A stretch of 64,000 nt of DNA from Macrostomum lignano (lineage: Eukaryota), in the NCBI GenBank assembly GCA_002269645.1, contig NIVC01002404.1:1-64000 (forward strand). The letters are read 5' to 3'. Below the pieces are notes generated by a model. The model was not told the origin of the DNA, made no database searches, and saw only the letters and a list, made by a program, of their open reading frames with translations. Shown in pieces: positions 33,216 to 64,000 of this stretch. The position numbers were made by a program, and so were the translations under genes. Each line of letters begins with the position of its first letter. Within the stretch, counting starts at the first letter, position 1.

Positions 33216-33465
33216 ACATGCTTTCATAACTGCTATACCCACGATCCTCAAGTTGACTAAAAAGCAAGTTGTAGTGATGAATTAGGTTGACTGGAAAGTG
33301 AGTTGCAATGATTTTTCTTAAAAAATATATGTGAAACATACTTTTTTGATAAAGTAGTGTCTTTTGACTCTTTTTTAATGGGGATTGTAAGATGAAACTT
33401 GACTTGCTTAGGGATTGTAAAATGAAAGAATGCCAGAAAAACTTGGCAAGCAATTTGCTTATAAG

Positions 33466-34197: not shown

Positions 34198-34199
34198 GC

Positions 34200-34219
34200 T
34201 GGTGGCAGCGATAAGGATT
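34200..34219 (+). promoter_or_regulatory. Primer binding site, tRNA-Leu-like (also at 42097-42116)
   Basis: TGGTGGCAGCGATAAGGATT lies 2 nt after the LTR and resembles the complement of tRNA-Leu 3' ends (TGGTGGCAGCGGTGGGATT). Confidence 0.75.
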
Positions 34220-34298
34220 AGAGAAACGGCGCGAACTCTTAAAACTAGATTCAGAAGAATTCCGAAGAATAATTTGAAAAGTTTTTCATAGAGAGAAG

Positions 34299-35303: not shown

Positions 35304-35340
35304 GTAGCGAGGGCCGCTTTGCGAGGCCACGTCCCTCTAG
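35294..35340 (+). promoter_or_regulatory. Predicted -1 ribosomal frameshift signal (G GGA AAC plus downstream stem-loop); also at 43191-43237
   Basis: The heptamer immediately precedes the gag TGA. The pol frame is -1 and open with no stop from here to the ATG at 35486. A GAGGG...CCCTC hairpin follows. Confidence 0.8.
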
Positions 35341-35485
35341 CAACAATTATCGCGAATTTCAGGCCTCTGAATTTGTAAATAATGCGTATCGAAGTAATGC
35401 CAGACAGTATAGTAACAGCAGAACGCATGCCGAATTCAATAAATTTCACAGAAAACCAAATAAAAATTTTGCACCTCGTGTACAT

Positions 35486-38400
35486 ATGCCGCTTGCACCT
35501 AGTCATGCGTCTGCTAGCCACAGTAGGCCGAATAATAAAGTACAAAGTACAGTAATTCCGAATGAGCATTCGAAGAGAGAATTCGAAGAAGATACGGAGA
35601 GAAAAGGACGAGAAGCAGTCGTCAATGGAATGCTAAGAAACCGAAAGGTCTACTTCTTGCTAGACACAGGAGCTGGACATAATTTCCTAAGCAAGAGTAC
35701 TTGGAAAAAGATGTTCAGAAGTGATGAAATTGAGTTGACTACTCGAAGAGTGACTACGTTTGACGGATCAAGTGTGCGAATTGAAGGAGAAGTCAGAACG
35801 AAAATACGATTCGGAGAGATAGAGATTGAGACAGAGTTCCTGCTGTGCAATCACGAGTGTGACGACATACTCGGGATGGAGTTCTTCATGAACTTCTGCG
35901 ACAGCATCAGCCTTTCCAGAGGAATGCTTGTATTAAAAGAAGGAACCTGCATCCCAATTCAGTTTACAAAATTACCCGTACGGGTTTGCCGAATCTACAG
36001 CCATAACAGCGTGACTATACCAGCGAATAGCGCTCTTCGAATTCCAATTAGAATGACTAAAGGATCAGAAGCCAACTATGGAACGCCAATGGTCATTGAC
36101 ACCATTGGAGGCCAAGTGACTACGAAGAGAAATTCCTTAGAGATGATTCCTACTCTAGTGACCATGAACGATGGAACAGGAGTAGTGGAAATAATCAATC
36201 GACAGAATGACGATATCAGACTGACAAGATCTACGCTGATTGGAGTGGCCAAACCCTTGAAGCCAGGAGGCCTGGCCTACTCTATTAACAGCAAAGGTCA
36301 AGCCAGTTCAGATGATACAATTAGGACAGTGAAGAGTGAAGAGAGTGAGTACAGCTGGATAAACGAGATCGATTTAGGAGAAGAGCTAACATCAGAACAG
36401 AAAGGACTAGTGATCGATTTGCTAAAGAAGAACAAGGAAGCATTTTCGCAGACCAACCAAGACATGGGTCTCACCCATCTTGTGACTCATGAAATATCTC
36501 TAAAAGATACCACACCGGTCAGGATTCCAACACGCAGAATTCCACCACATCTGCAAAAGCAAGTAGATGAGCAACTTGACGACATGCTTGCTAAGAACCT
36601 GATCCGACCGTGCTATAGTACTTATTCGACGCCGCTAGTGATAGTTCCTAAGAAGGATGGATCCATAAGAATCGTCAGTGACTTCAGGGTCCTGAATTCG
36701 AGAGTGAACTATTACCCATATCCATTACCGAACATACAAGAGACTTTCGCTCAGTTATCTGGAAGCAAGTACTTCAGTAGTCTAGATTTAAACTCTGGAT
36801 ACTGGCAGGTACCTATCAAAGAGGAGCACAAATTTATGACAGCCTTTTCCACCCTTACCAGAGGCCAGTTCGAATATCAGGTCATGGCACAGGGCTTGTC
36901 TAACGCTCCTGGTACATTCCAGAGACTCATGAATTTGGTGCTGATGGGAATACAGCACAAATTCGCAATGTCGTACATAGATGATATTGTGACATACTCA
37001 GAGAAATTCGAAGATCATCTCGGTCATCTGCAAGAAGTATTTCAAAGACTAATCTCAGCAGGACTAAAATTAAGACCAAAAAAGTGCAACTTGTTTCAGA
37101 AAGAGCTAAAGTACTTAGGGCATATCGTAGGAAGAGAAGGGATTAGAACAGACCCAGCTAAGATCGAAGCGATACAGTCATGGCCTACGCCGAAAGAGGT
37201 CAAAGAACTGCGAAGCTTCTTGGGGTTGTGTAACTACTACTGCAGATTTGTAAAGAATTACGCAGAGGCAGCGCATCCGCTATTTCAATTAACTAAGAAA
37301 GGTATTCAAAACTTTAGGGAAAAGTGGACCAAGAAACATGACGAGGCTTTCCAGCAGTTGAAGCAGAGAATGACATCGACCGAAGTACTCGCGTACCCAG
37401 AATTCTCAGAGAACGAGAATGTTCGAATGGTATTAGACACCGACGCAAGCGAAGACCGAATTGGTGCTTGCCTGGGTCAAATACAATCGGACGGGGTTGA
37501 AAGACCCATTGCTTACTTCAGCAGAGCAATGAAAGAGTCTGAGAAAAGATATCCGATTACCAGAAAAGAGCTATTAGCGCTAGTAGATGGCATGAAACAC
37601 TTCCGATTTTACCTAATTGGCAAAAGGTTTCTGGCCCGCACAGACCACAAGGCAATTCTATGGTTACTGCGCCAGACCGAAGCCCAAGGAATTCTCGGAA
37701 GATGGATTGAAAGACTGAGTGAGTTTCAATACGATATTGAGCACCGCAGTGGAGCCAAACATTCCAACGCAGATGGATTGTCACGGCGACCCTCGGAACC
37801 ACCAGTTGAACAGAAAGATGCTAAGATCAAAGAGAATGAGGCCGAAATTCCTAAGATGACAATAGAAACCAGCGCTGTGAAACAAGTCGTGACTAACAGC
37901 GTGAAAGATCAGAGTTGCCAGACCGACTTCACAGAAGAGTATGAATCAGATTCCGAAGACGAATTCGCAGATGATGAATACGAAGATGCCAGTGATCAGT
38001 TCGAAGATAATGATGACATCTATGAAGATGCAAGAGACTATTTCGAAGAGGAAGAGACAGTGTGCAGAAAGCTTCTGACAGATTACCTCTCGGTTCCATT
38101 GAAGAAAGAGCAGCTGACTTCAGCGCAGCATGCTGATCCTTCTATAAGAACCTTGATGGACTGGAAGCAGAAGAAAGTGCGTGAGCCGAAGTTGCCAGAA
38201 AATGCATCCGGAGAGTTGAAGAAGATGGTTAAGTTCTACGAGCAGATGAAAATCGAAGATGAAATGCTGACAGTCAGTGAAGACGGTAAACGGAAAGTAG
38301 TATTGCCAGAAAGGATTGAGAAAGATGTATTCAAAGAGCTGCATGACAGTCCGCTAGCAGGCCACCTAGGTCGGGACAAGACGCTACAGCGAGTCCGAGA

Positions 38401-39805
38401 CCGATTCTGGAGGCCGGGGTTAGTGACTGCAGTTGAAAAGTACATCGCAGAATGCATCCCGTGTCTGGAAAGTAAAAGCGGAAATAAAGTACGAGCACCG
38501 GTGCAGACCTTTCCGATATGCGAGCCATTTCATCGGCTGCACATAGATTTGATCGGTCCAATATCAAAGGAAAGCAGAAGAGGACACCGATATGTACTTA
38601 CTGTCGTAGATAGTACAACAAAGTTCCCATTCGCTTTTCCGGTTCGGAATCAGAAATCCGCGACTGTTATCAAAACGATACAAGAGAGAATTTTCAGCGA
38701 GTATGGCCAGTGTCAATGGATACACACTGATAATGGCAAGACTTTTGTAAGTCACCAATTTCAGGCATTCTGTACCCTATACGGCATTAAGCATACTTGC
38801 ACTACGCCTTACCATGCTCAGAGTAACGGGCTTGTCGAAAGATTTAACAAGCAAATTAAATCGATTGTAACCTGTTTGATTGAAAAGGATCATTCAGATT
38901 GGGATCTGCTCATACCCGCCGCTCTTGTAGCTGTGCGAACCAGTGTTAATCAAACTACTGGGTTCACACCACACTACTTACTATTCGGGAGAGAAGCAGA
39001 TTTGCCAATAGATAGCATTGTGAAAAGGCCAAGACTATACCGAGACTATCCTAGCTATGTGCTGGATCATGCGAAGAGAATCGAGGAGACAAAAGCAATT
39101 GTGCGAAGACAACTCGAAAAGGTGCGAGAGAAAAGGCAAGAGGACGAAGTTGAGAATCGTCAGCCTAAAAATGTGCCAGTTGGCTGTCTCGCTCTCATCA
39201 ACAATCCTCAACTTCACCAAGAGGAGAGCCACAAATTTCATCGAAAGAAAAGAGCAGCCTATCGAGTTCTTGCGAAGATATCTGATACAGTTTTCCGTGT
39301 GCAAAGAGAAATCAATGGCGAAAGGAGCGGAGAAAAACTATTAGTACATAGAAATAATCTGACTCCAGTGCCGAAATCCGAAATTGATTTACCAGAGGAA
39401 ATTAATAATAATTTAAAACCAGCACCAGTGCCAACTAAGAAGAAAGAACAGCCGAAGCCGAAGAAAAGAATTTGCCATAGACAAAAAGAAGTTAGAATTC
39501 CAGAAGTTCAAATTTTAGAGGAGGAAAGCTCAGACGAAGAAAACAGAATTCAATGGAGAGTATTCGCAGATCCGAATTCGCAGAGTGAAAACGAAGGAAA
39601 TGAAGAATTGAACAGTGAGAATACAGAGAGAGCGACTGACTCAGATGAGCCATCAGAAGAAGAAGAAGGAGCATTAGAGTTAGAGGAGGAACGAGTTCAG
39701 CCAGAGAATAGGTATAACTTTAGGATGACTCAGCGAAGGAGAGAAAGAGAAGGCGCGACAGGATTTGTGCCCCGAAGGCGCTACGCGAAATATTTAGCAC
39801 CTTAA
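35486..39805 (+). CDS. pol: Pol (copy 1): protease, reverse transcriptase, RNase H, integrase; probably expressed as Gag-Pol from 35294
   Basis: LLDTGA (PR), SLDLNSGYWQ / MAQGL / YIDD (RT), LDTDAS / KELLAL (RH), HHCC and IDLIGP / TDNG / NGLVERFN (IN). Intact ORF. Confidence 0.97.
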   Translation: MPLAPSHASASHSRPNNKVQSTVIPNEHSKREFEEDTERKGREAVVNGMLRNRKVYFLLDTGAGHNFLSKSTWKKMFRSDEIELTTRRVTTFDGSSVRIEGEVRTKIRFGEIEIETEFLLCNHECDDILGMEFFMNFCDSISLSRGMLVLKEGTCIPIQFTKLPVRVCRIYSHNSVTIPANSALRIPIRMTKGSEANYGTPMVIDTIGGQVTTKRNSLEMIPTLVTMNDGTGVVEIINRQNDDIRLTRSTLIGVAKPLKPGGLAYSINSKGQASSDDTIRTVKSEESEYSWINEIDLGEELTSEQKGLVIDLLKKNKEAFSQTNQDMGLTHLVTHEISLKDTTPVRIPTRRIPPHLQKQVDEQLDDMLAKNLIRPCYSTYSTPLVIVPKKDGSIRIVSDFRVLNSRVNYYPYPLPNIQETFAQLSGSKYFSSLDLNSGYWQVPIKEEHKFMTAFSTLTRGQFEYQVMAQGLSNAPGTFQRLMNLVLMGIQHKFAMSYIDDIVTYSEKFEDHLGHLQEVFQRLISAGLKLRPKKCNLFQKELKYLGHIVGREGIRTDPAKIEAIQSWPTPKEVKELRSFLGLCNYYCRFVKNYAEAAHPLFQLTKKGIQNFREKWTKKHDEAFQQLKQRMTSTEVLAYPEFSENENVRMVLDTDASEDRIGACLGQIQSDGVERPIAYFSRAMKESEKRYPITRKELLALVDGMKHFRFYLIGKRFLARTDHKAILWLLRQTEAQGILGRWIERLSEFQYDIEHRSGAKHSNADGLSRRPSEPPVEQKDAKIKENEAEIPKMTIETSAVKQVVTNSVKDQSCQTDFTEEYESDSEDEFADDEYEDASDQFEDNDDIYEDARDYFEEEETVCRKLLTDYLSVPLKKEQLTSAQHADPSIRTLMDWKQKKVREPKLPENASGELKKMVKFYEQMKIEDEMLTVSEDGKRKVVLPERIEKDVFKELHDSPLAGHLGRDKTLQRVRDRFWRPGLVTAVEKYIAECIPCLESKSGNKVRAPVQTFPICEPFHRLHIDLIGPISKESRRGHRYVLTVVDSTTKFPFAFPVRNQKSATVIKTIQERIFSEYGQCQWIHTDNGKTFVSHQFQAFCTLYGIKHTCTTPYHAQSNGLVERFNKQIKSIVTCLIEKDHSDWDLLIPAALVAVRTSVNQTTGFTPHYLLFGREADLPIDSIVKRPRLYRDYPSYVLDHAKRIEETKAIVRRQLEKVREKRQEDEVENRQPKNVPVGCLALINNPQLHQEESHKFHRKKRAAYRVLAKISDTVFRVQREINGERSGEKLLVHRNNLTPVPKSEIDLPEEINNNLKPAPVPTKKKEQPKPKKRICHRQKEVRIPEVQILEEESSDEENRIQWRVFADPNSQSENEGNEELNSENTERATDSDEPSEEEEGALELEEERVQPENRYNFRMTQRRREREGATGFVPRRRYAKYLAP

Positions 39806-40054
39806 ATCATGACGTAAGCAATTTCCCATAAGAAACAGTGTTAAATAGTTAAAATTCCGTATTAGAATTACTTATCTGCTTATAAAATTTAACATATGTA
39901 CATAGAGCGAATCTGTAAATACCATATTAATCTACAAAATGCGATCTTTAATTTGATACTTTACTCAAGAAAATCTATCAAAAAAAAAAAAAGTTATAAA
40001 AAGAAATAGAAAATCCATAAAAATTTAGTTGTCAAATCTGTCAAATCTGGCATG

Positions 40055-40120
40055 CCCCGCCCCACGCGCGAGGGAGTGCTTCGAAGAGGTCCAGTTTTTC
40101 GGCCCGCCAGCCTATAAATA
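40055..40120 (+). promoter_or_regulatory. Internal Pol II promoter for ORF3: GC box plus TATA (second copy 47953-48019)
   Basis: CCCCGCCCC at 40055-40063 and TATAAATA at 40113-40120, ~85 nt upstream of the ORF3 ATG. Confidence 0.6.
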
Positions 40121-40202
40121 CGAGCACCCGCAGGCCCCACAGATCCCATAGCTCACTGCTAGCTTCCTTTCTATTCTAAGAGCCATTCGCAGAGAAATCA
40201 AA

Positions 40203-41077
40203 ATGAACAACTCTATTGATATCTTGGACGAGTTAATTGGCAATCTGTCAGACGATATGGAGCCCCAGCCAGCGCCCAACACCGATGAAAATGAGGCACC
40301 GCTTCGATGTGCAACACGTCCAAAGGCGCCTGGTGTATCCAGCAAACGGCCAAGAACATCATCGCCAGCTTCATCGCTTGCCGCCAAATGAGGGTCGAAG
40401 GCCCCGAGCAGAAGCGCGCCGCCCTGGTGGCAGCACAGGCAGCTGCGCCCGTGCGCTCCTATGTTGTCAAGGCCACGCCAGGATCGTCGACATCAAGCCG
40501 AACGCAGCAGTTGGTGTCACCGCCAGCTGCCCCATCATCGAGAAAGACCCCGGCACCACGGCAGAAGAAATCGACAGCTGCGACACCGCCAGCTCAGCAG
40601 CCAGCGTCGCAGCCGAGCCTGCAATCAGCGCAGCAGTCAGCGCTGCAGCCGAGCCTGCAATCAGCGCAGCAGTCTAGCCAGCCATCAGCACTACAGCCGA
40701 GCCAGCAGCAATCGAATTCGCAGAGAGATTTTCATCGCATCGTCCGAGAACTTGTGGAGACTCGCGGAGCAGAGGTGGAAAAGCTACGCTTCCACATTGA
40801 GCAATACGCACTGAAAGTAGCGTACCACCGATCCGACAGCCGACAGCGCTACCCCCAATGCTCGCAAATTTGGACACACCTGAAGTTTCTGAGGGATCAA
40901 TTCAGTTACCAGGAAGCTGTCGCTGTTCTCCAGGACGTCGCCTATCGCCTCCAGCGAGCTATAAGAGCCAACCCGCCGCCAGCGCTGACGGTCCTCGACG
41001 AAGAGTACCGATGGTTTTTCGCTCAAGTCGGCTGGCCCTACTATCGCGACCTCCCGGAGCCCTGCATGTTTATCTGA
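40203..41077 (+). pseudogene. ORF3 copy 1, split by a 1-bp deletion near 40377 (40203-40391 and 40307-41077)
   Basis: TCATCGCTTGCC here versus TCATCGTCTTGCC in copy 2; otherwise identical. Confidence 0.8.
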
Positions 41078-41350
41078 ACTATTGAGGTGAACTAACTTTT
41101 GCGTTGCCTTTAATAACAATTTTGCCTTTTATAATACTTTTATAATAGTTCGTTTTGCTTCCATAATAGTTCTCACTTTAATGGTTTACCTACATAATAG
41201 TTCTATCACAACCATTTTATGCACCAATTGTTTTAGCACTGAATTGTGTTTTCTGCACCTTGCTTTGCACCTTTTCACCTGCATTTTCCTACGATATCAA
41301 TTTTTCACTGTATACATATAATATAGTATTTCGTTCAAAATTTGATATAT

Positions 41351-41362
41351 AGAGGAGGAAAG
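41351..41362 (+). promoter_or_regulatory. Polypurine tract (also 49251-49262)
   Basis: AGAGGAGGAAAG immediately 5' of LTR2 and LTR3. Confidence 0.9.
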
Positions 41363-41363
41363 T

Positions 41364-42094
41364 TGTACTAGTGCTATAGTATACTCGAATGTTCTTTCAA
41401 TGTAATAACTGTATATTCGAATCTTTCTTAGAAACTGAATCTACGCGAACGCCAAATAATAGTTTGTTTTAATGCGCGAAATAAATTGGAGAATTATTTT
41501 TTGTTTTAATCGTATGTGGGGAAAATCACTATATATAGGAGCGGTTTTGCGACAAATATACTCCAACTGTCTTTTACTCGTGAGCAAATAATTGCGAACA
41601 GAATAAGCAGTTCAATCTAAACCATTTCAAAGTCTTTGAGCTAAATAGCGACTTATTTATTTGCAAAACCTGTGAAACGATTCTAAGAAATTTGCTAAGA
41701 GAAGGGAATTGGGACTAATTCTTGGAGATATACCAAGAGAGGCGCCGTGACCCTCTAGTCTGGTGAACGCCCGATTAGGACTATACACTAATACATATAC
41801 CAGTACTAGACCGCTCAGGCCATAAGCTACTAGAACGCTACCAGAAAGCAAGCCATAAGCTACCAGAAACGCTACTAAGAACGCTACCCAGAAATATTTA
41901 AATGAAATTCTAAGAAATAGTTAGGGAGTAAAAGCAAGTATAATCAGGATAACTGTAGTTGGCAAATCGGTGGGATTAAAATTGATAAAGTAAGAGGTGA
42001 AAGGCCTGTAACAACTTTGGTGGCAGCTCGTAGGATATTTAATAAACACTAATAGTTAGAAGTTTAGAAAGACAGAGCCAAAAGGCCTGTCACA
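41364..42094 (+). repeat. LTR2 (731 bp, shared central LTR)
   Basis: Preceded by the PPT and followed by the PBS. Carries a 1-bp deletion and one substitution relative to LTR1. Confidence 0.95.
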
Positions 42095-42195
42095 GCTGGT
42101 GGCAGCGATAAGGATTAGAGAAACGGCGCGAACTCTTAAAACTAGATTCAGAAGAATTCCGAAGAATAATTTGAAAAGTTTTTCATAGAGAGAAG

Positions 42196-43200
42196 ATGAA
42201 TCAGAATCAGGCTAATGATGCCATCGCCATGCTGGCAGAAGAATTGCGAAACCGACTAGAGATAGGGCCGATGAGACACGTTAAGATTCAGAAATTCACA
42301 CCTACGCAAGACATTCGGATCTGGCTAACAGCCTTCGATCAGCGCTGTGAAGTAGAAGGGATAGATGAGGAACATAGGAAGCAGGAATTGCTAGCTAATC
42401 TGGACCTGTCCACTGCATTCGCAGCGGTACAGCGCCTAAATCTGCCCGAGGATCTTGAATACGAAGAGTTCAAAGAGCGACTGATTGAGCGATTCGGAAG
42501 AATCGGTAGTTCCGCAGAATTCAGAGAGGAGTTTCGTGGAAGAATGCAAGGCAGAAATGAGCCTGTAGAGACTTTCGCAGACTGTTTGATCGAGCTGGCA
42601 TCGCGTGCATTTCCGAATATGACGGTTGAGCAAAGGGAAGAAGAAATTGTTGAGCAATTCATCAAGGGAATCAGAATTCCGTCAGAGACCCGTGAGAAGC
42701 TAATCTTTGCGCAGCCAGGCAATTTACAAGAGGCTAGAAGAATGCTAAGAAGGATGGAGGCTGCGTGGAACATGTCTCACAAGAATGTCAACATGAGAAT
42801 GGCCAAAGGCGAAGGCGAGAGTGAGCAGAAGGCAGATCAGGAAAAGCTTGAGGACATCATCAAGAAGCAGAGAGCAGAGTTAGAGCAACAGAAGAAGGCG
42901 ATTGAGGAGCTGATGGAAGAGAAGAGAGCTAGCCGTCAGCAGTATCATCCGCAGAATCAATATCAAACGTACGCTCAGGTCGCTGGACCGCCGCAGCAGC
43001 CGAGATATCGGCCGCAGCAGCAGCAGCAGCAGCAGCCAGTATGGCGCGGTCAGCCTCAGTTCAACAGGCAGCCACAGCAACAGCAGCAGCCTCGAGCCTG
43101 CTACAATTGCGGGAAGCTTGGCCACATGGCGAGGAATTGCCAGAGCGCTAGGCCAAACGGTCAGCGAGTGATGGACTACCAGAAGCAGCAGGGAAACTGA
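42196..43200 (+). CDS. gag: Gag (copy 2)
   Basis: Protein identical to copy 1. Confidence 0.93.
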   Translation: MNQNQANDAIAMLAEELRNRLEIGPMRHVKIQKFTPTQDIRIWLTAFDQRCEVEGIDEEHRKQELLANLDLSTAFAAVQRLNLPEDLEYEEFKERLIERFGRIGSSAEFREEFRGRMQGRNEPVETFADCLIELASRAFPNMTVEQREEEIVEQFIKGIRIPSETREKLIFAQPGNLQEARRMLRRMEAAWNMSHKNVNMRMAKGEGESEQKADQEKLEDIIKKQRAELEQQKKAIEELMEEKRASRQQYHPQNQYQTYAQVAGPPQQPRYRPQQQQQQQPVWRGQPQFNRQPQQQQQPRACYNCGKLGHMARNCQSARPNGQRVMDYQKQQGN

Positions 43201-43382
43201 GTAGCGAGGGCCGCTTTGCGAGGCCACGTCCCTCTAGCAACAATTATCGCGAATTTCAGGCCTCTGAATTTGTAAATAATGCGTATCGAAGTAATGCCAG
43301 ACAGTATAGTAACAGCAGAACGCATGCCGAATTCAATAAATTTCACAGAAAACCAAATAAAAATTTTGCACCTCGTGTACAT

Positions 43383-46300
43383 ATGCCGCTTGCACCTAGT
43401 CATGCGTCTGCTAGCCACAGTAGGCCGAATAATAAAGTACAAAGTACAGTAATTCCGAATGAGCATTCGAAGAGAGAATTCGAAGAAGATACGGAGAGAA
43501 AAGGACGAGAAGCAGTCGTCAATGGAATGCTAAGAAACCGAAAGGTCTACTTCTTGCTAGACACAGGAGCTGGACATAATTTCCTAAGCAAGAGTACTTG
43601 GAAAAAGATGTTCAGAAGTGATGAAATTGAGTTGACTACTCGAAGAGTGACTACGTTTGACGGATCAAGTGTGCGAATTGAAGGAGAAGTCAGAACGAAA
43701 ATACGATTCGGAGAGATAGAGATTGAGACAGAGTTCCTGCTGTGCAATCACGAGTGTGACGACATACTCGGGATGGAGTTCTTCATGAACTTCTGCGACA
43801 GCATCAGCCTTTCCAGAGGAATGCTTGTATTAAAAGAAGGAACCTGCATCCCAATTCAGTTTACAAAATTACCCGTACGGGTTTGCCGAATCTACAGCCA
43901 TAACAGCGTGACTATACCAGCGAATAGCGCTCTTCGAATTCCAATTAGAATGACTAAAGGATCAGAAGCCAACTATGGAACGCCAATGGTCGTTGACACC
44001 ATTGGAGGCCAAGTGACTACGAAGAGAAATTCCTTAGAGATGATTCCTACTCTAGTGACCATGAACGATGGAACAGGAGTAGTGGAAATAATCAATCGAC
44101 AGAATGACGATATCAGACTGACAAGATCTACGCTGATTGGAGTGGCCAAACCCTTGAAGCCAGGAGGCCTGGCCTACTCTATTAACAGCAAAGGTCAAGC
44201 CAGTTCAGATGATACAATTAGGACAGTGAAGAGTGAAGAGAGTGAGTACAGCTGGATAAACGAGATCGATTTAGGAGAAGAGCTAACATCAGAACAGAAA
44301 GGACTAGTGATCGATTTGCTAAAGAAGAACAAGGAAGCATTTTCGCAGACCAACCAAGACATGGGTCTCACCCATCTTGTGACTCATGAAATATCTCTAA
44401 AAGATACCACACCGGTCAGGATTCCAACACGCAGAATTCCACCACATCTGCAAAAGCAAGTAGATGAGCAACTTGACGACATGCTTGCTAAGAACCTGAT
44501 CCGACCGTGCTATAGTACTTATTCGACGCCGCTAGTGATAGTTCCTAAGAAGGATGGATCCATAAGAATCGTCAGTGACTTCAGGGTCCTGAATTCGAGA
44601 GTGAACTATTACCCATATCCATTACCGAACATACAAGAGACTTTCGCTCAGTTATCTGGAAGCAAGTACTTCAGTAGTCTAGATTTAAACTCTGGATACT
44701 GGCAGGTACCTATCAAAGAGGAGCACAAATTTATGACAGCCTTTTCCACCCTTACCAGAGGCCAGTTCGAATATCAGGTCATGGCACAGGGCTTGTCTAA
44801 CGCTCCTGGTACATTCCAGAGACTCATGAATTTGGTGCTGATGGGAATACAGCACAAATTCGCAATGTCGTACATAGATGATATTGTGACATACTCAGAG
44901 AAATTCGAAGATCATCTCGGTCATCTGCAAGAAGTATTTCAAAGACTAATCTCAGCAGGACTAAAATTAAGACCAAAAAAGTGCAACTTGTTTCAGAAAG
45001 AGCTAAAGTACTTAGGGCATATCGTAGGAAGAGAAGGGATTAGAACAGACCCAGCTAAGATCGAAGCGATACAGTCATGGCCTACGCCGAAAGAGGTCAA
45101 AGAACTGCGAAGCTTCTTGGGGTTGTGTAACTACTACTGCAGATTTGTAAAGAATTACGCAGAGGCAGCGCATCCGCTATTTCAATTAACTAAGAAAGGT
45201 ATTCAAAACTTTAGGGAAAAGTGGACCAAGAAACATGACGAGGCTTTCCAGCAGTTGAAGCAGAGAATGACATCGACCGAAGTACTCGCGTACCCAGAAT
45301 TCTCAGAGAACGAGAATGTTCGAATGGTATTAGACACCGACGCAAGCGAAGACCGAATTGGTGCTTGCCTGGGTCAAATACAATCGGACGGGGTTGAAAG
45401 ACCCATTGCTTACTTCAGCAGAGCAATGAAAGAGTCTGAGAAAAGATATCCGATTACCAGAAAAGAGCTATTAGCGCTAGTAGATGGCATGAAACACTTC
45501 CGATTTTACCTAATTGGCAAAAGGTTTCTGGCCCGCACAGACCACAAGGCAATTCTATGGTTACTGCGCCAGACCGAAGCCCAAGGAATTCTCGGAAGAT
45601 GGATTGAAAGACTGAGTGAGTTTCAATACGATATTGAGCACCGCAGTGGAGCCAAACATTCCAACGCAGATGGATTGTCACGGCGACCCTCGGAACCACC
45701 AGTTGAACAGAAAGATGCTAAGATCAAAGAGAATGAGGCCGAAATTCCTAAGATGACAATAGAAACCAGCGCTGTGAAACAAGTCGTGACTAACAGCGTG
45801 AAAGATCAGAGTTGCCAGACCGACTTCACAGAAGAGTATGAATCAGATTCCGAAGACGAATTCGCAGATGATGAATACGAAGATGCCAGTGATCAGTTCG
45901 AAGATAATGATGACATCTATGAAGATGCAAGAGACTATTTCGAAGAGGAAGAGACAGTGTGCAGAAAGCTTCTGACAGATTACCTCTCGGTTCCATTGAA
46001 GAAAGAGCAGCTGACTTCAGCGCAGCATGCTGATCCTTCTATAAGAACCTTGATGGACTGGAAGCAGAAGAAAGTGCGTGAGCCGAAGTTGCCAGAAAAT
46101 GCATCCGGAGAGTTGAAGAAGATGGTTAAGTTCTACGAGCAGATGAAAATCGAAGATGAAATGCTGACAGTCAGTGAAGACGGTAAACGGAAAGTAGTAT
46201 TGCCAGAAAGGATTGAGAAAGATGTATTCAAAGAGCTGCATGACAGTCCGCTAGCAGGCCACCTAGGTCGGGACAAGACGCTACAGCGAGTCCGAGACCG

Positions 46301-47702
46301 ATTCTGGAGGCCGGGGTTAGTGACTGCAGTTGAAAAGTACATCGCAGAATGCATCCCGTGTCTGGAAAGTAAAAGCGGAAATAAAGTACGAGCACCGGTG
46401 CAGACCTTTCCGATATGCGAGCCATTTCATCGGCTGCACATAGATTTGATCGGTCCAATATCAAAGGAAAGCAGAAGAGGACACCGATATGTACTTACTG
46501 TCGTAGATAGTACAACAAAGTTCCCATTCGCTTTTCCGGTTCGGAATCAGAAATCCGCGACTGTTATCAAAACGATACAAGAGAGAATTTTCAGCGAGTA
46601 TGGCCAGTGTCAATGGATACACACTGATAATGGCAAGACTTTTGTAAGTCACCAATTTCAGGCATTCTGTACCCTATACGGCATTAAGCATACTTGCACT
46701 ACGCCTTACCATGCTCAGAGTAACGGGCTTGTCGAAAGATTTAACAAGCAAATTAAATCGATTGTAACCTGTTTGATTGAAAAGGATCATTCAGATTGGG
46801 ATCTGCTCATACCCGCCGCTCTTGTAGCTGTGCGAACCAGTGTTAATCAAACTACTGGGTTCACACCACACTACTTACTATTCGGGAGAGAAGCAGATTT
46901 GCCAATAGATAGCATTGTGAAAAGGCCAAGACTATACCGAGACTATCCTAGCTATGTGCTGGATCATGCGAAGAGAATCGAGGAGACAAAAGCAATTGTG
47001 CGAAGACAACTCGAAAAGGTGCGAGAGAAAAGGCAAGAGGACGAAGTTGAGAATCGTCAGCCTAAAAATGTGCCAGTTGGCTGTCTCGCTCTCATCAACA
47101 ATCCTCAACTTCACCAAGAGGAGAGCCACAAATTTCATCGAAAGAAAAGAGCAGCCTATCGAGTTCTTGCGAAGATATCTGATACAGTTTTCCGTGTGCA
47201 AAGAGAAATCAATGGCGAAAGGAGCGGAGAAAAACTATTAGTACATAGAAATAATCTGACTCCAGTGCCGAAATCCGAAATTGATTTACCAGAGGAAATT
47301 AATAATAATTTAAAACCAGCACCAGTGCCAACTAAGAAGAAAGAACAGCCGAAGCCGAAGAAAAGAATTTGCCATAGACAAAAAGAAGTTAGAATTCCAG
47401 AAGTTCAAATTTTAGAGGAGGAAAGCTCAGACGAAGAAAACAGAATTCAATGGAGAGTATTCGCAGATCCGAATTCGCAGAGTGAAAACGAAGGAAATGA
47501 AGAATTGAACAGTGAGAATACAGAGAGAGCGACTGACTCAGATGAGCCATCAGAAGAAGAAGAAGGAGCATTAGAGTTAGAGGAGGAACGAGTTCAGCCA
47601 GAGAATAGGTATAACTTTAGGATGACTCAGCGAAGGAGAGAAAGAGAAGGCGCGACAGGATTTGTGCCCCGAAGGCGCTACGCGAAATATTTAGCACCTT
47701 AA
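43383..47702 (+). CDS. pol: Pol (copy 2)
   Basis: Identical to copy 1 except I>V (MVIDT versus MVVDT). Confidence 0.97.
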   Translation: MPLAPSHASASHSRPNNKVQSTVIPNEHSKREFEEDTERKGREAVVNGMLRNRKVYFLLDTGAGHNFLSKSTWKKMFRSDEIELTTRRVTTFDGSSVRIEGEVRTKIRFGEIEIETEFLLCNHECDDILGMEFFMNFCDSISLSRGMLVLKEGTCIPIQFTKLPVRVCRIYSHNSVTIPANSALRIPIRMTKGSEANYGTPMVVDTIGGQVTTKRNSLEMIPTLVTMNDGTGVVEIINRQNDDIRLTRSTLIGVAKPLKPGGLAYSINSKGQASSDDTIRTVKSEESEYSWINEIDLGEELTSEQKGLVIDLLKKNKEAFSQTNQDMGLTHLVTHEISLKDTTPVRIPTRRIPPHLQKQVDEQLDDMLAKNLIRPCYSTYSTPLVIVPKKDGSIRIVSDFRVLNSRVNYYPYPLPNIQETFAQLSGSKYFSSLDLNSGYWQVPIKEEHKFMTAFSTLTRGQFEYQVMAQGLSNAPGTFQRLMNLVLMGIQHKFAMSYIDDIVTYSEKFEDHLGHLQEVFQRLISAGLKLRPKKCNLFQKELKYLGHIVGREGIRTDPAKIEAIQSWPTPKEVKELRSFLGLCNYYCRFVKNYAEAAHPLFQLTKKGIQNFREKWTKKHDEAFQQLKQRMTSTEVLAYPEFSENENVRMVLDTDASEDRIGACLGQIQSDGVERPIAYFSRAMKESEKRYPITRKELLALVDGMKHFRFYLIGKRFLARTDHKAILWLLRQTEAQGILGRWIERLSEFQYDIEHRSGAKHSNADGLSRRPSEPPVEQKDAKIKENEAEIPKMTIETSAVKQVVTNSVKDQSCQTDFTEEYESDSEDEFADDEYEDASDQFEDNDDIYEDARDYFEEEETVCRKLLTDYLSVPLKKEQLTSAQHADPSIRTLMDWKQKKVREPKLPENASGELKKMVKFYEQMKIEDEMLTVSEDGKRKVVLPERIEKDVFKELHDSPLAGHLGRDKTLQRVRDRFWRPGLVTAVEKYIAECIPCLESKSGNKVRAPVQTFPICEPFHRLHIDLIGPISKESRRGHRYVLTVVDSTTKFPFAFPVRNQKSATVIKTIQERIFSEYGQCQWIHTDNGKTFVSHQFQAFCTLYGIKHTCTTPYHAQSNGLVERFNKQIKSIVTCLIEKDHSDWDLLIPAALVAVRTSVNQTTGFTPHYLLFGREADLPIDSIVKRPRLYRDYPSYVLDHAKRIEETKAIVRRQLEKVREKRQEDEVENRQPKNVPVGCLALINNPQLHQEESHKFHRKKRAAYRVLAKISDTVFRVQREINGERSGEKLLVHRNNLTPVPKSEIDLPEEINNNLKPAPVPTKKKEQPKPKKRICHRQKEVRIPEVQILEEESSDEENRIQWRVFADPNSQSENEGNEELNSENTERATDSDEPSEEEEGALELEEERVQPENRYNFRMTQRRREREGATGFVPRRRYAKYLAP

Positions 47703-48101
47703 ATCATGACGTAAGCAATTTCCCATAAGAAACAGTGTTAAATAGTTAAAATTCCGTATTAGAATTACTTATCTGCTTATAAAATTTAACATATTGTACA
47801 TAGAGCGAATCTGTAAATACCATATTAATCTACAAAATGCGATCTTTAATTTGATACTTTACTCAAGAAAATCTATCAAAAAATAAAAAAGTTATAAAAA
47901 GAAATAGAAAATCCATAAAAATTTAGTTGTCAAATCTGTCAAATCTGGCATGCCCCGCCCCACGCGCGAGGGGAGTGCTTCGAAGAGGTCCAGTTTTTCG
48001 GCCCGCCAGCCTATAAATACGAGCACCCGCAGGCCCCACAGATCCCATAGCTCACTGCTAGCTTCCTTTCTATTCTAAGAGCCATTCGCAGAGAAATCAA
48101 A

Positions 48102-48977
48102 ATGAACAACTCTATTGATATCTTGGACGAGTTAATTGGCAATCTGTCAGACGATATGGAGCCCCAGCCAGCGCCCAACACCGATGAAAATGAGGCACCG
48201 CTTCGATGTGCAACACGTCCAAAGGCGCCTGGTGTATCCAGCAAACGGCCAAGAACATCATCGCCAGCTTCATCGTCTTGCCGCCAAATGAGGGTCGAAG
48301 GCCCCGAGCAGAAGCGCGCCGCCCTGGTGGCAGCACAGGCAGCTGCGCCCGTGCGCTCCTATGTTGTCAAGGCCACGCCAGGATCGTCGACATCAAGCCG
48401 AACGCAGCAGTTGGTGTCACCGCCAGCTGCCCCATCATCGAGAAAGACCCCGGCACCACGGCAGAAGAAATCGACAGCTGCGACACCGCCAGCTCAGCAG
48501 CCAGCGTCGCAGCCGAGCCTGCAATCAGCGCAGCAGTCAGCGCTGCAGCCGAGCCTGCAATCAGCGCAGCAGTCTAGCCAGCCATCAGCACTACAGCCGA
48601 GCCAGCAGCAATCGAATTCGCAGAGAGATTTTCATCGCATCGTCCGAGAACTTGTGGAGACTCGCGGAGCAGAGGTGGAAAAGCTACGCTTCCACATTGA
48701 GCAATACGCACTGAAAGTAGCGTACCACCGATCCGACAGCCGACAGCGCTACCCCCAATGCTCGCAAATTTGGACACACCTGAAGTTTCTGAGGGATCAA
48801 TTCAGTTACCAGGAAGCTGTCGCTGTTCTCCAGGACGTCGCCTATCGCCTCCAGCGAGCTATAAGAGCCAACCCGCCGCCAGCGCTGACGGTCCTCGACG
48901 AAGAGTACCGATGGTTTTTCGCTCAAGTCGGCTGGCCCTACTATCGCGACCTCCCGGAGCCCTGCATGTTTATCTGA
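48102..48977 (+). CDS. ORF3 copy 2: intact 291-aa protein of unknown function, not env-like
   Basis: Acidic N-terminus, KRPR basic motif, S/P/Q/A low-complexity middle and a ~115-aa globular-looking C-terminus. No signal peptide or transmembrane helix visible. Confidence 0.75.
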   Translation: MNNSIDILDELIGNLSDDMEPQPAPNTDENEAPLRCATRPKAPGVSSKRPRTSSPASSSCRQMRVEGPEQKRAALVAAQAAAPVRSYVVKATPGSSTSSRTQQLVSPPAAPSSRKTPAPRQKKSTAATPPAQQPASQPSLQSAQQSALQPSLQSAQQSSQPSALQPSQQQSNSQRDFHRIVRELVETRGAEVEKLRFHIEQYALKVAYHRSDSRQRYPQCSQIWTHLKFLRDQFSYQEAVAVLQDVAYRLQRAIRANPPPALTVLDEEYRWFFAQVGWPYYRDLPEPCMFI

Positions 48978-49263
48978 ACTATTGAGGTGAACTAACTTTT
49001 GCGTTGCCTTTAATAATAATTTTGCCTTTTATAATACTTTTATAATAGTTCGTTTTGCTTCCATAATAGTTCTCACTTTAATGGTTTACCTACATAATAG
49101 TTCTATCACAACCATTTTATGCACCAATTGTTTTAGCACTGAATTGTGTTTTCTGCACCTTGCTTTGCACCTTTTCACCTGCATTTTCCTACGATATCAA
49201 TTTTTCACTGTATACATATAATATAGTATTTCGTTCAAAATTTGATATATAGAGGAGGAAAGT

Positions 49264-49995
49264 TGTACTAGTGCTATAGTATACTCGAATGTTCTTTCAA
49301 TGTAATAACTGTATATTCGAATCTTTCTTAGAAACTGAATCTACGCGAACGCCAAATAATAGTTTGTTTTAATGCGCGAAATAAATTGGAGAATTATTTT
49401 TTGTTTTAATCGTATGTGGGGAAAATCACTATATATAGGAGCGGTTTTGCGACAAATATACGCCAACTGTCTTTTACTCGTGAGCAAATAATTGCGAACA
49501 GAATAAGCAGTTCAATCTAAACCATTTCAAAGTCTTTGAGCTAAATAGCGACTTATTTATTTGCAAAACCTGTGAAACGATTCTAAGAAATTTGCTAAGA
49601 GAAGGGAATTGGGACTAATTCTTGGAGATATACCAAGAGAGGCGCCGTGACCCTCTAGTCTTGGTGAACGCCCGATTAGGACTATACACTAATACATATA
49701 CCAGTACTAGACCGCTCAGGCCATAAGCTACTAGAACGCTACCAGAAAGCAAGCCATAAGCTACTAAGAACGCTACTAAGAACGCTACCCAGAAATATTT
49801 AAATGAAATTCTAAGAAATAGTTAGGGAGTAAAAGCAAGTATAATCAGGATAACTGTAGTTGGCAAATCGGTGGGATTAAAATTGATAAAGTAAGAGGTG
49901 AAAGGCCTGTAACAACTTTGGTGGCAGCTCGTAGGATATTTAATAAACACTAATAGTTAGAAGTTTAGAAAGACAGAGCCAAAAGGCCTGTCACA
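49264..49995 (+). repeat. LTR3 (732 bp)
   Basis: Preceded by the PPT, followed by the TAAG TSD rather than a PBS. Confidence 0.95.
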
Positions 49996-52299
49996 TAAGT
50001 TATAGGCAATTCACTTGCTTACAAAATGAACTGTAGGTAAATTTTAATAGGCAATTCTTGGCAGGCAATGGACAATTTAGGCCTAGGCCCTACTCACAGG
50101 CAAAATCAAATGCACTGTGGGAAAATCTTGGTAGAAAAGTTCTATGTGCAAATCTTAATATACAAATCTTAGGAATCCTCTAGTTTTGCACATTTAATTA
50201 TTTAACAAAAAATAATGACGTCTTTGACTTGAGTTATTGCAAATAAATATTTAAACTCGCGCAAGTTAAAGACATGGCCCAATGAATATATTTTATGGGC
50301 ATTCTTTCGTTAGACTATCCGCGAGTTGTGCAATTTTCATACAGAAAGAGCAAAGTGCGACGATGTAGCGGCTTCTCAAAAAACGATTATATAACAGTAT
50401 TCGGTATATTGGGAAACGTCGGAACAACCGTTGCTAGGGAATATCTCGGCTTGTGTTGTGAGGCGTCTTTGTTGGTGTCTGAGGTGTCTTTTTAAAATAG
50501 ACTATAGAGACGTGCGTAAAAATGTCTAAAAATTCATTTTATCTTGAGTACTACTAACTAGACAATTTTTTTAAACATTTACTGAAGGGTTTCTGAATGT
50601 CTGTCTGAATGTCTGTCGCGAAACCAATACATCCGCATCCGCGAGAGCCCTACTACTAACGTGTTGACCTGGCGTTAGCATGCGTATGTTTAAATTAAAT
50701 TAATTAAATATAATATTTCTTTCAAATGTTGCGACAAACAAAATTACGCATACAAAAAGACATCTCACTATAACTCTTTGCATGACTCACAATATCTCAT
50801 TATAAAAATAGTTTTACAAGTTATGCAGCTATATTTTAATTTTTCTTTTAATCGTTTTGTCTGCCGGCAGACGAAAAGGCTGCAGACAAAATGACCGCGC
50901 ACCGTGTGGACGGCCATTGTGTTACGCTTGCTCTTGGTTCCCGACGTCTGAGCGGTATATAGGCCGCGCGACCAGTATATATACATGTAGTTTGTAAAGA
51001 ATTACTTAATTCTTAAAAAGAGTGCAAAAGCAGAAGCTCAAAATTGTTTCCTGATGGATTTTACTTATCATACCTCCTTGACAGAGAGATTACACGGTCG
51101 TAAATTTATTGAAAGGTTTAGAAATTTTCCAAATGTCGTATTGAGCAAATTAAATTACAAATTAAGGCGATCGCATGCTTTAAAGATACGCAAGTGCTCA
51201 AACTAGTGAATATCTGAACGTAGAAATTCGAGACCTTTATTTTATTTATTATTTTTTTTATTTATGAATGTAGGGATTCGCTCAGAGCAATACGCATTGT
51301 ACACAAGGATCACAACTGTATAGTAGTATGCAAATAGTAGTATACCAGTGTCCTTGAGTGTACACCCGAGAAGAGCTCGATCTACAAGACGTACTCATTT
51401 TTAATAGATTGTAGCAGTCAGTCTTGCACCACTTCGCATGCATGTGTTCCAGCTGACTCTGCTTTGAATGAGCCATAAAAAATAAGACCGACATATCATG
51501 ACAGACAGAAGTAAAAAAGTTAAGATTTAGTATATTGTGTGATGATAATTGATTCAGCTTGAGACACTACACATAAAACACGTAAAATGCGTAGACCACT
51601 TTGCCCGCGTCTATCCACGCAAATATATCGTAGTACTTATTCGATTACAAGCGTACGTACTACCCCAATCAACGAAAAAAATTCATCACAACTAAAGAAG
51701 CCTTGAGCAGTGCATGGAACCCTCGAAGCCTCCAAACTTATATACAGTCTTGTTTATCTTAAAACACAATCGCGCACACTAAATATATAATACATGTACA
51801 TGTCGCGCATGTAAATGTACATATGACCTCAATTGATGCTTCTACGGTATCTTACGTAAAATTCTAAAGTAAAGTAGAAAGCATTGCAGGACCAGACGTC
51901 TATAGCCACTCCGATTCTTCTCTCACCCCCTTATTTCTATACAATCAGCCAATTTGGGTTGCCATTAGTTACGAGATGGAGAAGAGCGCTTGACAGACAA
52001 TAAAATAATGGCTTCTGACTGCAGCGGAAAGGGGAGACAAGGAGAATACTTGAAAACTCTTGTGGGCTTGCTACATTAAGCACTCTCCATCGATCGGTTA
52101 CACGACAGAACAAATAAAGTAATTTCTCTGCAACCATTAGCGCGGATACAAGTAGAATACAACCGAAAGTGAATGAGCATGAGTCACTCATACTCAGCCA
52201 GGTCAGTAACTTTCTCTGTTGTGAATTTTCTCCCAACCATATACGGGCTTAGCTAGGCGCTCCAAGGAAATATCGCTCACTCTGACGTCCTTTTGCGTT

Positions 52300-60900: not shown

Positions 60901-63900
60901 TCGGATCACAGGTGAGACTAGATCAACCTATCGGATCACAGGTGAGACTAGATCAACCTATCGGATCACAGGTGAGACTAGATCAACCTATCGGATCACA
61001 GGTGAGACTAGATCAATCTACTGAATCACAGGTGAGACTAGATCAATCTACCGAATCACAGGTGAGACTAGATCAATCTACCGAATCACAGGTGAGACTA
61101 GATCAATCTACCGAATCACAGGTGAGAATAGATAAATATAGGCCGAATCACAGGTGAGAACTGACACACCTGGGTCAGTGAACCGTCTGCAGCGCGCCAG
61201 ACCTTCAGGGACGAGTCCTGCCCACCCGTGATGACGTAGGTGCCGTCGGGACTGAATGCCAGACAGCCGATGCCCCTCTGTCCGTGGCTCAACGTATTCA
61301 AAAGTTGGCCATCTGTGGCGTCCCACAGGTAAGCGAGGCGGTCGTCTCCGCTGAGCACGAGCTGGCTAGACGGGTAGCACTTGAGCAGGCTGGTGTTGCA
61401 TCTGGCCAAACAGGCAGAAATTGTTGAATAAATTTGCCTAATAAATTCAGCTCTGACAGCAGATCAACTTTGTCCTAGTTGCTTAATTCCTCAGGGAGAT
61501 TGTCTCTTTGAAATTTCCTCTTTTGAAATTTCCCGCTGAGATTTCGTCACGAAAACTTCCTAGCGAGATTTACCAAGTGAGTTTTTTATTAGAATCTTAG
61601 GCTTATTTAGCGTGATGCTGCATTACTTTCCCTGAGTGAGACTTTTTAACTTCTTTAATTCTTTTAAATCCCTCATTAGCGCCCTAAAGGACTGTACCTT
61701 TTTTCCCTAAAAATCCGAATTAAGCCTAAAATTTCAGACTTGCACACTGGGATCTGGGATCGAGGATCTGGGATCGAGGATCTGGGATCGAGGATCTGGG
61801 ATCGAGGATCTGGGATCGAGGATCTGGGATCGAGGATCTGGGATCGAGGATCTGGGATCGAGGATCTGGGATCGAGGATCTGGGATCGAGGATCTGGGAT
61901 CGAGGATCTGGGATCGAGGATCTGGGATCGAGGATCTGGGATCGAGGATCTGGGATCGAGGATCTGGGATCGAGGATCTGGGATCGAGGATCTGGGATCG
62001 AGGATCTGGGATCGAGGATCTGGGATCGAGGATCTGGGATCGAGGATCTGGGATCGAGGATCTGGGATCGAGGATCTGGGATCGAGGATCTGGGATCGAG
62101 GATCTGGGATCGAGGATCTGGGATCGAGGATCTGGGATCGAGGATCTGGGATCGAGGATCTGGGATCGAGGATCTGGGATCGAGGATCTGGGATCGAGGA
62201 TCTGGGATCGAGGATCTGGGATCGAGGATCTGGGATCGAGGATCTAGACAGCTAGCCACTTACTTGATAACCAGACGAACTTCAGCGCTGGCCAGCTCCT
62301 GCTGACGTCCTTCAGTTGACGCAGCCGCTGGCCTGGCCGCCGCGGCAGCAGCAGCAGCATCGAGACACCAGATTCGAACCTCGTCGCCAGAGTCGGCGGT
62401 GAGGAGAGCAGCTCCGCCGCTGCCACTGCCGCTGCTGCCGCGCAGGAAGTAGGCCGCCCGGACCGGCCGGCGGTGCCCCGGCAGCTGCAGCGCCGGCCAC
62501 AGCGAGTCGCCGAGTCGCCAGAGTCGGCAGGCGGTGTCAGTGCTGGCGGACAGCAGCCAGTGCGCGTCCCCGCTCAGCCGGACGCAGGAGACGCTGGCCG
62601 GATGGCCGCGCACGGAGTCGACGAGGGCGGCGCTCTCCAGCTGCCACAGCTGCAGGACGCCGTCCACGGAGCCGGTGACAGCCAGCTGGCCGTTGTGGCT
62701 CAGGTGGCAGCAGGTGATCAGCGAGTCTTGGCGCTCTTCAACAGCTGCTGGCGCGTCCGGCTCGGACTGCTGGTCGATCTCCAGGTTCCAGTAGCGGACC
62801 GAGTGCTGAAGGATGTTTGGTCAGATGCACTCAGCGATAGGTCGAAGGGCAAATCCAAGGCGACAGCCAACCCGTAGCTACGAGCGGACCCCCTGAACAC
62901 GCGCACTTACTTTCAATCACAATGACTGTCTCGACACTAGTGTAAAGAGGCAGACTCAGGCATTGCAGTGAATCGCAAAACAAGCCTCATGAATCCGATC
63001 TACTCAGCACCTACTCAGCACTCCGTTCTCCTATTTAGGACTGAACCAACTTTTTATACAGAAATCGATAAACTTGTCCATTGCACGCAATCATAGATAT
63101 ATACATACAATGAGGCAGGATTCAAAGGTGTTGTAGCCTAGTCGTTAGAGCGTCGGACCCACTCGGAACAATTTGTGTCCTTGAGCAAGGCACTTAACTC
63201 TGCATTGCTTCAGTTCACCCAGCTGTAAAATTGGTGCCAGCATTAGCTGAGGTGATTGAGGCTGGTGGCGACCCCCCCTTAAGTCCTTGGGACTAAACAG
63301 CCGTACGCAGCCTAAAAAAAGCAACACATAGCTTTGCTCACCTTCTGCCCAATGATAATGTAGTTGCCATCCGGGGTCGCTTTCACGGCTAGCACCGGGC
63401 CGCCGTGCTCCCCGGGGAAGTGGCACCGGGTCTCTCTGGTGAAGATGTTCACCACCAGAGTCTGCCCGTCTGAGCAGCCCAGCACGGCGTGTTTGGCATC
63501 GGCTGTCACCGTCATGGCTGTGACCTTGTCGCTGACGCTGTCCATCTCGTGGATGTGAGCCCCGGTGGCGATGGACTTCACCAGGACGCGACCATCGGCG
63601 CAGGCCACCAGCAGGAAGGTGGACTCGGCGCTGAGGCAGACGCAGCTGACGGGACTCATCAGATCGTCGAACGTCATCATCGGACTCAGGTCGCTGAAGT
63701 ACCAGACTTTCACTTTGAAATCGTCGCCGCCGCTGATCAACAGCGAGCAGCTGGCGTTAATAGCGACGGCGCGGACTTGGCTTGCGTGGCAGGCCAAGTT
63801 CAGCTCAACGATGAGTCCCGATACGCGGACCTTCGCGATGGAACCGTCGGCTGAACCAGATACCAGGTAGCGACCGCACCGGCTCAGGTGCAGGGTCAGC

Positions 63901-63918: not shown

Positions 63919-64000
63919 CTGTGGAGATCAGGAAGGTGTACGTTAGGCATGCACTTTTACTCGAGGCTAAGGTTAGTGTGCGATGAAGCATGAATGAGAT

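Follow-up and report, generated by a model that had tools for sequence, protein, structure and literature searches.

A conserved third open reading frame downstream of pol in a Ty3/Gypsy retrotransposon of Macrostomum lignano

Intracellular LTR retrotransposons are regarded as needing no genes other than gag and pol, and to our knowledge few additional genes have had a role tested in animals: mostly env, plus CERV. A 64,000-nucleotide stretch of the Macrostomum lignano genome (contig NIVC01002404.1; hereafter the window) contains a Ty3/Gypsy element with a third open reading frame, ORF3, between pol and the 3′ LTR, which raises the question of what this frame encodes and how it is expressed. 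The original prediction, made from the sequence alone, was that ORF3 is a separately transcribed accessory gene, distinct from env, with its own GC-box/TATA promoter. We find that ORF3 is almost certainly a real, conserved, non-env gene. The best explanation overall, to which we assign a probability of about one in three, is that it encodes a nuclear activator or anti-silencer made from its own promoter. A conserved, probably nuclear, non-env gene of an undescribed family would provide a handle on how animal retrotransposons control their own activity or resist silencing by the host.

Organization of the element and of the ORF3 cassette

The element is a young Ty3/Gypsy LTR retrotransposon at window positions 33466–49995 (Table 1). 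Two tandem units are arranged as LTR-unit-LTR-unit-LTR, with LTRs of 731–732 bp and the middle LTR common to both units. Its assignment to Ty3/Gypsy follows from TG...CA LTRs, a primer-binding site (PBS), a polypurine tract (PPT), a target duplication, and gag followed by pol with Pfam domains in the order PR-RT-RH-IN. The target duplication, TAAG, lies on both flanks of the dimer (33462–33465 and 49996–49999), and the PBS is, we presume, of the tRNA-Leu type. The units differ by 4 substitutions and 4 single-base indels over 7.9 kb, and LTR1 differs from LTR3 at 3 of its 732 positions; with the two units 99.9% identical, dN/dS between them is meaningless. A dimer with one shared LTR and a single target duplication could have arisen by genuine insertion in tandem or by unequal recombination, or be duplicated only in the assembly.

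Table 1 Features of the Ty3/Gypsy dimer (window positions)
Feature	Position	Strand	Details
LTR1	33466–34197	+	732 bp, TG...CA
Unit 1 gag and pol, open	34299–39805	+	
Unit 1 ORF3 copy	40203–41077	+	Frameshifted past codon 58
LTR2, common to both units	41364–42094	+	TATA-like 41530; GTAAGA donor-like 41990; AATAAA 41480, 42041
Primer-binding site	42097–42107	+	
gag	42196–43200	+	334 aa, one CCHC knuckle
pol	43383–47702	+	1439 aa from first ATG, PR-RT-RH-IN order, stop 47702
AT-rich spacer	47703–47949	+	AATAAA 47882; TGTCAAATC twice at 47928–47947
Candidate internal promoter	47953–48019	+	GC box 47953–47961; TATAAATA 48012–48019; 62–64% GC island
5′ UTR or rival splice acceptor	48051–48091	+	CTCAC 48051–48055; pyrimidine tract 48062–48076; AG 48078, 48080, 48090
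ORF3	48102–48977	+	291 aa; ATG 48102, TGA 48977
T-rich 3′ UTR	48978–49250	+	Without AATAAA
Polypurine tract	49251–49262	+	
LTR3	49264–49995	+	AATAAA 49380, 49942

At the gag–pol junction (43191–43250), a G GGA AAC slippery heptamer lies at 43191 in the gag frame, just 5′ of the gag stop, and is followed by a hairpin (−13.5 kcal/mol); pol is in the −1 frame. The nearest named relative of the RT-RH region is an M. lignano protein with 64% identity (50% for pol over 1168 aa), and the 118 other RT-RH relatives among the matches listed share 34–51%. Gypsy clades named for M. lignano are Gmr1/Osvaldo, Mag, CsRN1 and Mdg3/Micropia.

The LTR has several features of its own. Near its 3′ end, the LTR end and PBS at 42082–42130 have an older copy some 85 nt further 5′, at 41997–42045, and it looks as if the LTR grew through priming at a duplicated PBS. 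About six 11–12-bp repeats at 41826–41893, downstream of the TATA, form a candidate binding array; the copy sequence differs in LTR3. A search for heat-shock elements found none in the spacer and two one-mismatch sites in the LTR; the one-mismatch site at the LTR start (41382–41394) is not canonical under the definition in PMC12801592.

Downstream of pol, every component of the predicted cassette was found: the spacer, which is AT-rich as claimed (16–28% GC per 50-nt bin), the GC box CCCCGCCCC, the TATA box TATAAATA, the 291-aa sense ORF, the PPT and the LTR. ORF3 is intact in unit 2, and an in-frame stop 18 codons 5′ of its ATG rules out a longer frame in that direction. Of 2,000 dinucleotide shuffles, 1 contained an ORF of at least 291 aa, and no antisense ORF of at least 100 aa occurs in 47703–49263. 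Unit 1 has the same cassette, as predicted for each unit, but its reading frame is broken. Each of the four indels that distinguish the units shortens a run of 2–4 nt; this pattern, together with equal numbers of indels and substitutions, would fit long-read errors, so the unit 1 frameshift is possibly an assembly error.

A protein family without envelope features

A phmmer search of 1.84 billion representative sequences returned four homologues of ORF3 (E = 1e-28, 2e-16, 2e-12 and 1e-4). A naming search that scored the top 8000 candidates gave two of the four, the stand-alone M. lignano gene models BOX15_Mlig016073g1 and BOX15_Mlig026206g2, both annotated as hypothetical proteins. The annotation that holds these models was built from RNA-seq (PMC5730564), which indicates that relatives of ORF3 are transcribed and says nothing direct about the copy here. 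Both models appear in the supplement of PMC7336406 with the positional class Non-Specific and no neoblast tag.

Conservation is uneven along the protein. Identity to ORF3 in the C-terminal domain (C-domain) is 45/115, 45/116, 39/88 and 30/102 (39, 39, 44 and 29%), and is higher still in a basic block at aa 28–90 (36/61 and 26/53; 59 and 49%), which contains the motifs EAPLR..TRP, KRP and K[RK]AA. The two homologues that span this block both keep KRP and K[RK]AA. In the linker between them (aa 91–172), 16 and 13 of 82 positions are kept, and ORF3 has 12/36-bp repeats of its own there; S, P, Q, A and T make up 83% of this stretch, in agreement with the disordered S/P/Q/A middle that had been proposed. 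That the basic block and the C-domain are conserved and the linker is not points to selection on the protein. An acidic amphipathic helix at aa 6–13 is matched in one homologue (P0121) and absent from another (P0122), which is possibly incomplete. The C terminus ends in a conserved aromatic/proline tail. A C-terminal CaaX motif was considered and rejected as a family feature, since the Cys is at −4 in two of the four tail-bearing members and at −3 in the others.

The KRPR motif and the C-terminal peptides quoted in the original prediction are present. We take the conserved basic clusters to be a nuclear import pattern, and on this basis the ORF3 protein is probably nuclear. The helix at aa 6–13 we read as resembling an activation domain or an export motif.

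We modelled the protein to characterize the C-domain. Alone, it was predicted from a single sequence with a pLDDT of about 80; a model from the five-sequence alignment placed five helices at aa 167–275 (pLDDT about 90, range 85–95), followed by an ordered tail. The rest of the modelled protein is disordered apart from the short acidic helix, and the model contains no strand. Searching 48,161 chains for similar structures gave the Gle1 CTD as the best match (Z 8.2, rmsd 3.4, 121 aligned), followed by MetH-cap-like domains (Z 8.0), cullin repeats (7.7 and lower), the Rev1 CTD (7.3) and MIF4G/MA3 domains, including NOT1 MIF4G (6.9). The best scores (8.2, 8.0, 8.0 and 7.7) come from unrelated proteins with 5–11% identity, and we regard them, as far as models allow, as ties among unrelated helical bundles in the range that the tool calls a common arrangement. 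The single-sequence model had no Foldseek match in the PDB at E = 0.001, and neither it nor the alignment model had one in BFVD at the same threshold. The structural searches matched no known DNA-binding fold, and no chromodomain-like or capsid-like fold occurred among the top 50 rows. A catalytic alpha/beta domain of the DEDDy or GDSL type is likewise not indicated, as the model lacks strands and Pfam gave no match. With 17 K+R against 15 D+E, the C-domain has no more than a slight basic excess. The modelled five-helix bundle suggests a binding module.

Sequence searches also left the family without a name. Pfam gave no match to ORF3 at E = 1 (best 0.042 in any member, to an unrelated family); across Pfam, PHROGs and NCBIfam the best value was 0.0044, from a single member to an unnamed PHROG that the other members did not match. 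The PDB gave no match by sequence or profile (best E 0.66), a word-index search with the C-domain confirmed 0 of 123 candidates, the ESM Atlas had none by features and a best TM of 0.27 by structure, and 0 of 160 pattern matches in prokaryotic genomes were confirmed. A duplication of gag or pol was considered and rejected: against gag, pol and 120 pol relatives, the family profile reached no more than 7.5 bits. The ORF3 family thus appears undescribed, and the compact, unrecognized C-domain of the original prediction is borne out as five predicted helices that belong to no Pfam family and resemble no fold distinctively. We also consider the family probably element-borne.

We examined all five members for features of an envelope protein. 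The maximum 19-residue hydropathy was 0.22–1.02 (1.02 in ORF3), so that, by a hydropathy scan only, none has a signal peptide or transmembrane segment, as had been claimed for ORF3. There were no RxK/RR furin sites and only 0–4 cysteines, unlike the cysteine-rich ectodomain of env, and the structural searches listed no fusion-protein fold, the model being a small helical bundle. Taken with the four homologues and the confident C-domain fold, the lack of membrane, signal and cleavage features in all five upholds a genuine third gene that is not env, and neither of the alternatives that would undo it, decayed sequence or an env fragment, is supported.

Expression of ORF3

The candidate promoter lies in a GC island that is non-coding in frame, inside the otherwise AT-rich spacer. 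Its consensus TATA is 90 nt 5′ of the ORF3 ATG, with no ATG between. A GC box 20–120 nt 5′ of TATAWAWR occurred in 1 of 5,000 shuffles of 47940–48101 and in 37 of 5,000 shuffles of the whole spacer, rates that flatter because the motifs were picked after being seen; TATAWAWR by itself appeared in 30% of the shuffles of the whole spacer, which has a further copy at 47893. Judging from these motifs, we consider it likely, with some reserve, that the internal promoter is used. We looked for sequence common to this promoter and the LTR and found no local alignment above chance (68 to 259 of 300 shuffles scored as high), a comparison that short degenerate sites would escape. Directly 5′ of the GC box is the TGTCAAATC pair, which in our reading resembles a TALE homeodomain site.

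At the other end of the cassette, the predicted T-rich 3′ UTR, for which use of the LTR poly(A) signal was proposed, has 18–42% GC and no AATAAA inside it, the next copies being in LTR3. In LTR2, an AATAAA lies upstream of the TATA-like sequence with a T-rich run after it, and the ORF3 mRNA could accordingly end in U3 and not at 49942.

Splicing is a real rival to the internal promoter on sequence grounds. Between the TATA and the ATG is an acceptor-like stretch with a branch-point-like pentamer (CTCAC), a pyrimidine tract and several AGs. When the 729 AGs of the element are ordered by the pyrimidine content 5′ of each, those at 48080 and 48078 come first and third. The GTAAGA in LTR2 fits the M. 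lignano donor motif GT[G/A]AG (PMC8629364). The two routes could coexist.

Candidate functions and their precedents

Drosophila sORF2 and, separately, the VANC proteins, which act in anti-silencing, are among the systems to compare with this one. The premise of the original prediction, that extra ORFs in Ty3/Gypsy elements are usually env genes expressed by splicing, proved too narrow: non-env ORF3s, post-pol internal promoters and nuclear accessory proteins have each been published for this group. Oikopleura Tor3b and Tor4b express a third gene from an internal promoter, and for Tor4b 5′RACE proved a start in the intergenic space after pol (PMC4402516). They are thus animal LTR retroelements with a third gene, but the promoter proven there is only predicted for ORF3, and their gene encodes a membrane glycoprotein, Env, whereas the ORF3 protein is soluble and probably nuclear. 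Maize Grande gene23 encodes a nuclear protein of unknown function from its own promoter (reviewed in PMC7264820); like it and the Retand TRP28 ORFs (PMC11963269), ORF3 is an accessory ORF between pol and the 3′ LTR of a Gypsy element. Those are antisense ORFs of plants in a multi-kb region, however, and ORF3 is sense and has neither TRP28 (PF04195) nor another Pfam domain. CERV of C. elegans Cer1 is a nuclear, lineage-restricted accessory protein that has a basic signal for import and a candidate one for export (PMC10309623). ORF3 is similarly novel, has few known relatives, belongs to an animal Gypsy element and carries a basic import-like block. CERV is made by splicing, has exons in common with gag and comprises 517 aa with a G-protein-like domain, a fold not seen in the ORF3 model.

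Foamy virus Tas is made from an internal promoter, activates the LTR and binds elements at both promoters (PMC3185757). It is the functional model for our best explanation, being an accessory gene 5′ of the 3′ LTR with an internal promoter, as is proposed for ORF3. Foamy virus, by contrast, is a retrovirus with env, and ORF3 has no BFVD structural match or detected element shared between promoter and LTR. Bdelloid Juno and Vesta have sense, non-env ORF3s after pol in Gypsy-like elements of an invertebrate, but these encode DEDDy exonucleases, GDSL esterases or membrane proteins (PMC5408684), and our ORF3 matches none of the three. Planarian Burro is a flatworm Gypsy element with accessory content (PMC6431247); it differs in being a 30-kb giant with BIR, BCL2, MATH and Env in a polyprotein, against an unrelated layout of 8.6 kb here.

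Each ingredient therefore has precedent, and the architecture recombines known features. Our literature searches (subscription papers and Repbase lay outside their scope) found neither the ORF3 protein family nor this combination of features in an animal Gypsy element, nor any account of a third ORF in LTR elements of Macrostomum. The main text of a 2025 M. lignano survey with domain-based LTR annotation does not contain the words 'ORF' or 'envelope' or discuss such ORFs, and Macrostomum is not mentioned in the metazoan env survey PMC13524379.

In the explanation that we favour, ORF3 would be the accessory gene of a Macrostomum Ty3/Gypsy lineage. The short GC-box/TATA promoter after pol would give a subgenomic mRNA that starts near 48040 and ends in the 3′ LTR, independent of the 5′ LTR. 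The basic block (KRP...KRAA) would carry the protein into the nucleus, where it may serve as an adaptor, its five-helix domain binding the DNA or RNA of the element, or else a host factor for chromatin or RNA, and its acidic N-terminal helix recruiting the transcription machinery. The outcome would be LTR expression that is raised or de-silenced in the manner of Tas. An independent promoter best suits a factor that is needed before or despite LTR silencing, which favours an activator or anti-silencer, and the Tor4b env, Grande gene23 and Tas precedents for internal promoters, nuclear location and LTR activation support it. It is weakened by the lack of a match to a known DNA-binding fold, by the near-neutral C-domain and, in contrast to a Tas-type response element, by the finding of no sequence shared above chance by promoter and LTR; the homologues, moreover, could be host genes. 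Between an activator or anti-silencer and another nuclear role we see the odds as even. A more ambitious form of this explanation is unlikely: an env-less 'complex' Macrostomum Gypsy lineage whose new family of nuclear transactivators or anti-silencing proteins, made from their own promoter, boots a silenced LTR and converges on the Tas circuit. If it were true, several diverged families of the same genome would each have their own version. M. lignano offers transgenesis, working LTR reporters and existing 5′-end and poly(A) data, which make the promoter, localization and trans-activation testable.

ORF3 might instead act on RNA, as a Rev- or CERV-like export or processing factor that licenses export of unspliced genomic RNA, with the N-terminal helix as export signal; it would be made from a spliced LTR transcript (donor about 41990, acceptor about 48079–48091) or by both routes. 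We consider this doubtful, although export depends on CERV, itself a nuclear accessory protein that a Gypsy element makes by splicing (PMC10309623), the donor fits, and two of the best-ranked AGs in the element, with a branch-point-like pentamer, stand where an acceptor would be. These AGs are preceded by A or G and not by the C of the CAG that M. lignano prefers, and the CAG at 48089 ranks 88 of 729; on a sense strand rich in purines, moreover, a high rank would fall to any pyrimidine-rich 5′ UTR. An ATG lies in the upstream exon at 41902, and splicing needs no non-coding GC-box/TATA island. The RNA-metabolism helical domains among the top fold rows (Gle1 CTD, NOT1 MIF4G) tie with unrelated bundles, and CERV has domains that ORF3 does not, a G-protein-like domain and a Cys loop.

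Capture of a host gene is unlikely. Under this alternative, a member of a Macrostomum-specific host family was taken with its promoter and persists as a passenger, or as a selfish host-directed effector, with no direct role in replication. Codon use bears on it in both directions: synonymous GC3 of ORF3 (0.59) falls between that of pol (0.42) and of five host exons in the window (0.73), and codon use is closer to that of the host than to that of pol (log ratio +8, compared with −38 for gag), but GC3 is near that of gag (0.55) and well below the host exons, which suggests long residence. Such intermediate values would fit an old capture or long residence. The cassette is a complete promoter-gene-UTR unit with sharp GC steps, and the annotation of the named homologues is that of ordinary hypothetical proteins; against this, homologues are limited to a handful of proteins and ORF3 is intronless. 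ORF3 and its relatives share about 40% identity, a divergence comparable in size to that between pol and its closest named relative in M. lignano, which is consistent with joint divergence and is not a test of it. Whether or not the homologues are located in LTR elements decides between an accessory lineage and capture.

An improbable alternative is a cofactor linked to the particle or to integration, packaged with Gag or bound to integrase and aiding nuclear import of cDNA or target choice. Such a role was raised in the review of plant additional ORFs (PMC7264820), and a conserved import-like block with a helical bundle of protein-interaction type would suit it, but the family profile shows no likeness to gag or pol and no chromodomain-like or capsid-like fold is among the top 50. 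More improbable still is operon-style expression by spliced-leader trans-splicing of the LTR transcript, in which the AATAAA at 47882 would terminate the cistron before it. Trans-splicing affects about 30% of M. lignano genes, and operons are frequent (PMC8629364); yet the spacer contains no [T/C]TNCAG motif, its A-richness makes an AATAAA expected by chance, and the TATA island is left unexplained. An env remnant, small fusogen or non-functional open frame, for which the location between pol and the 3′ LTR and the frameshift in one of two copies might speak, is largely refuted by five members without a hydrophobic segment, furin site or many cysteines, an all-helical soluble model without a BFVD match, four conserved homologues, and indels between the units that resemble long-read errors.

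The host exons of the window, from 14 ORFs scanned, encode a protein kinase (10067–10600, −), CCDC96/113 (14619–15179, +), a metallo-beta-lactamase fold (20799–21290, −), a Sof1/DCAF13-like protein (25772–26254, −) and WD40 (63312–63950, −), and they sit among many minisatellites.
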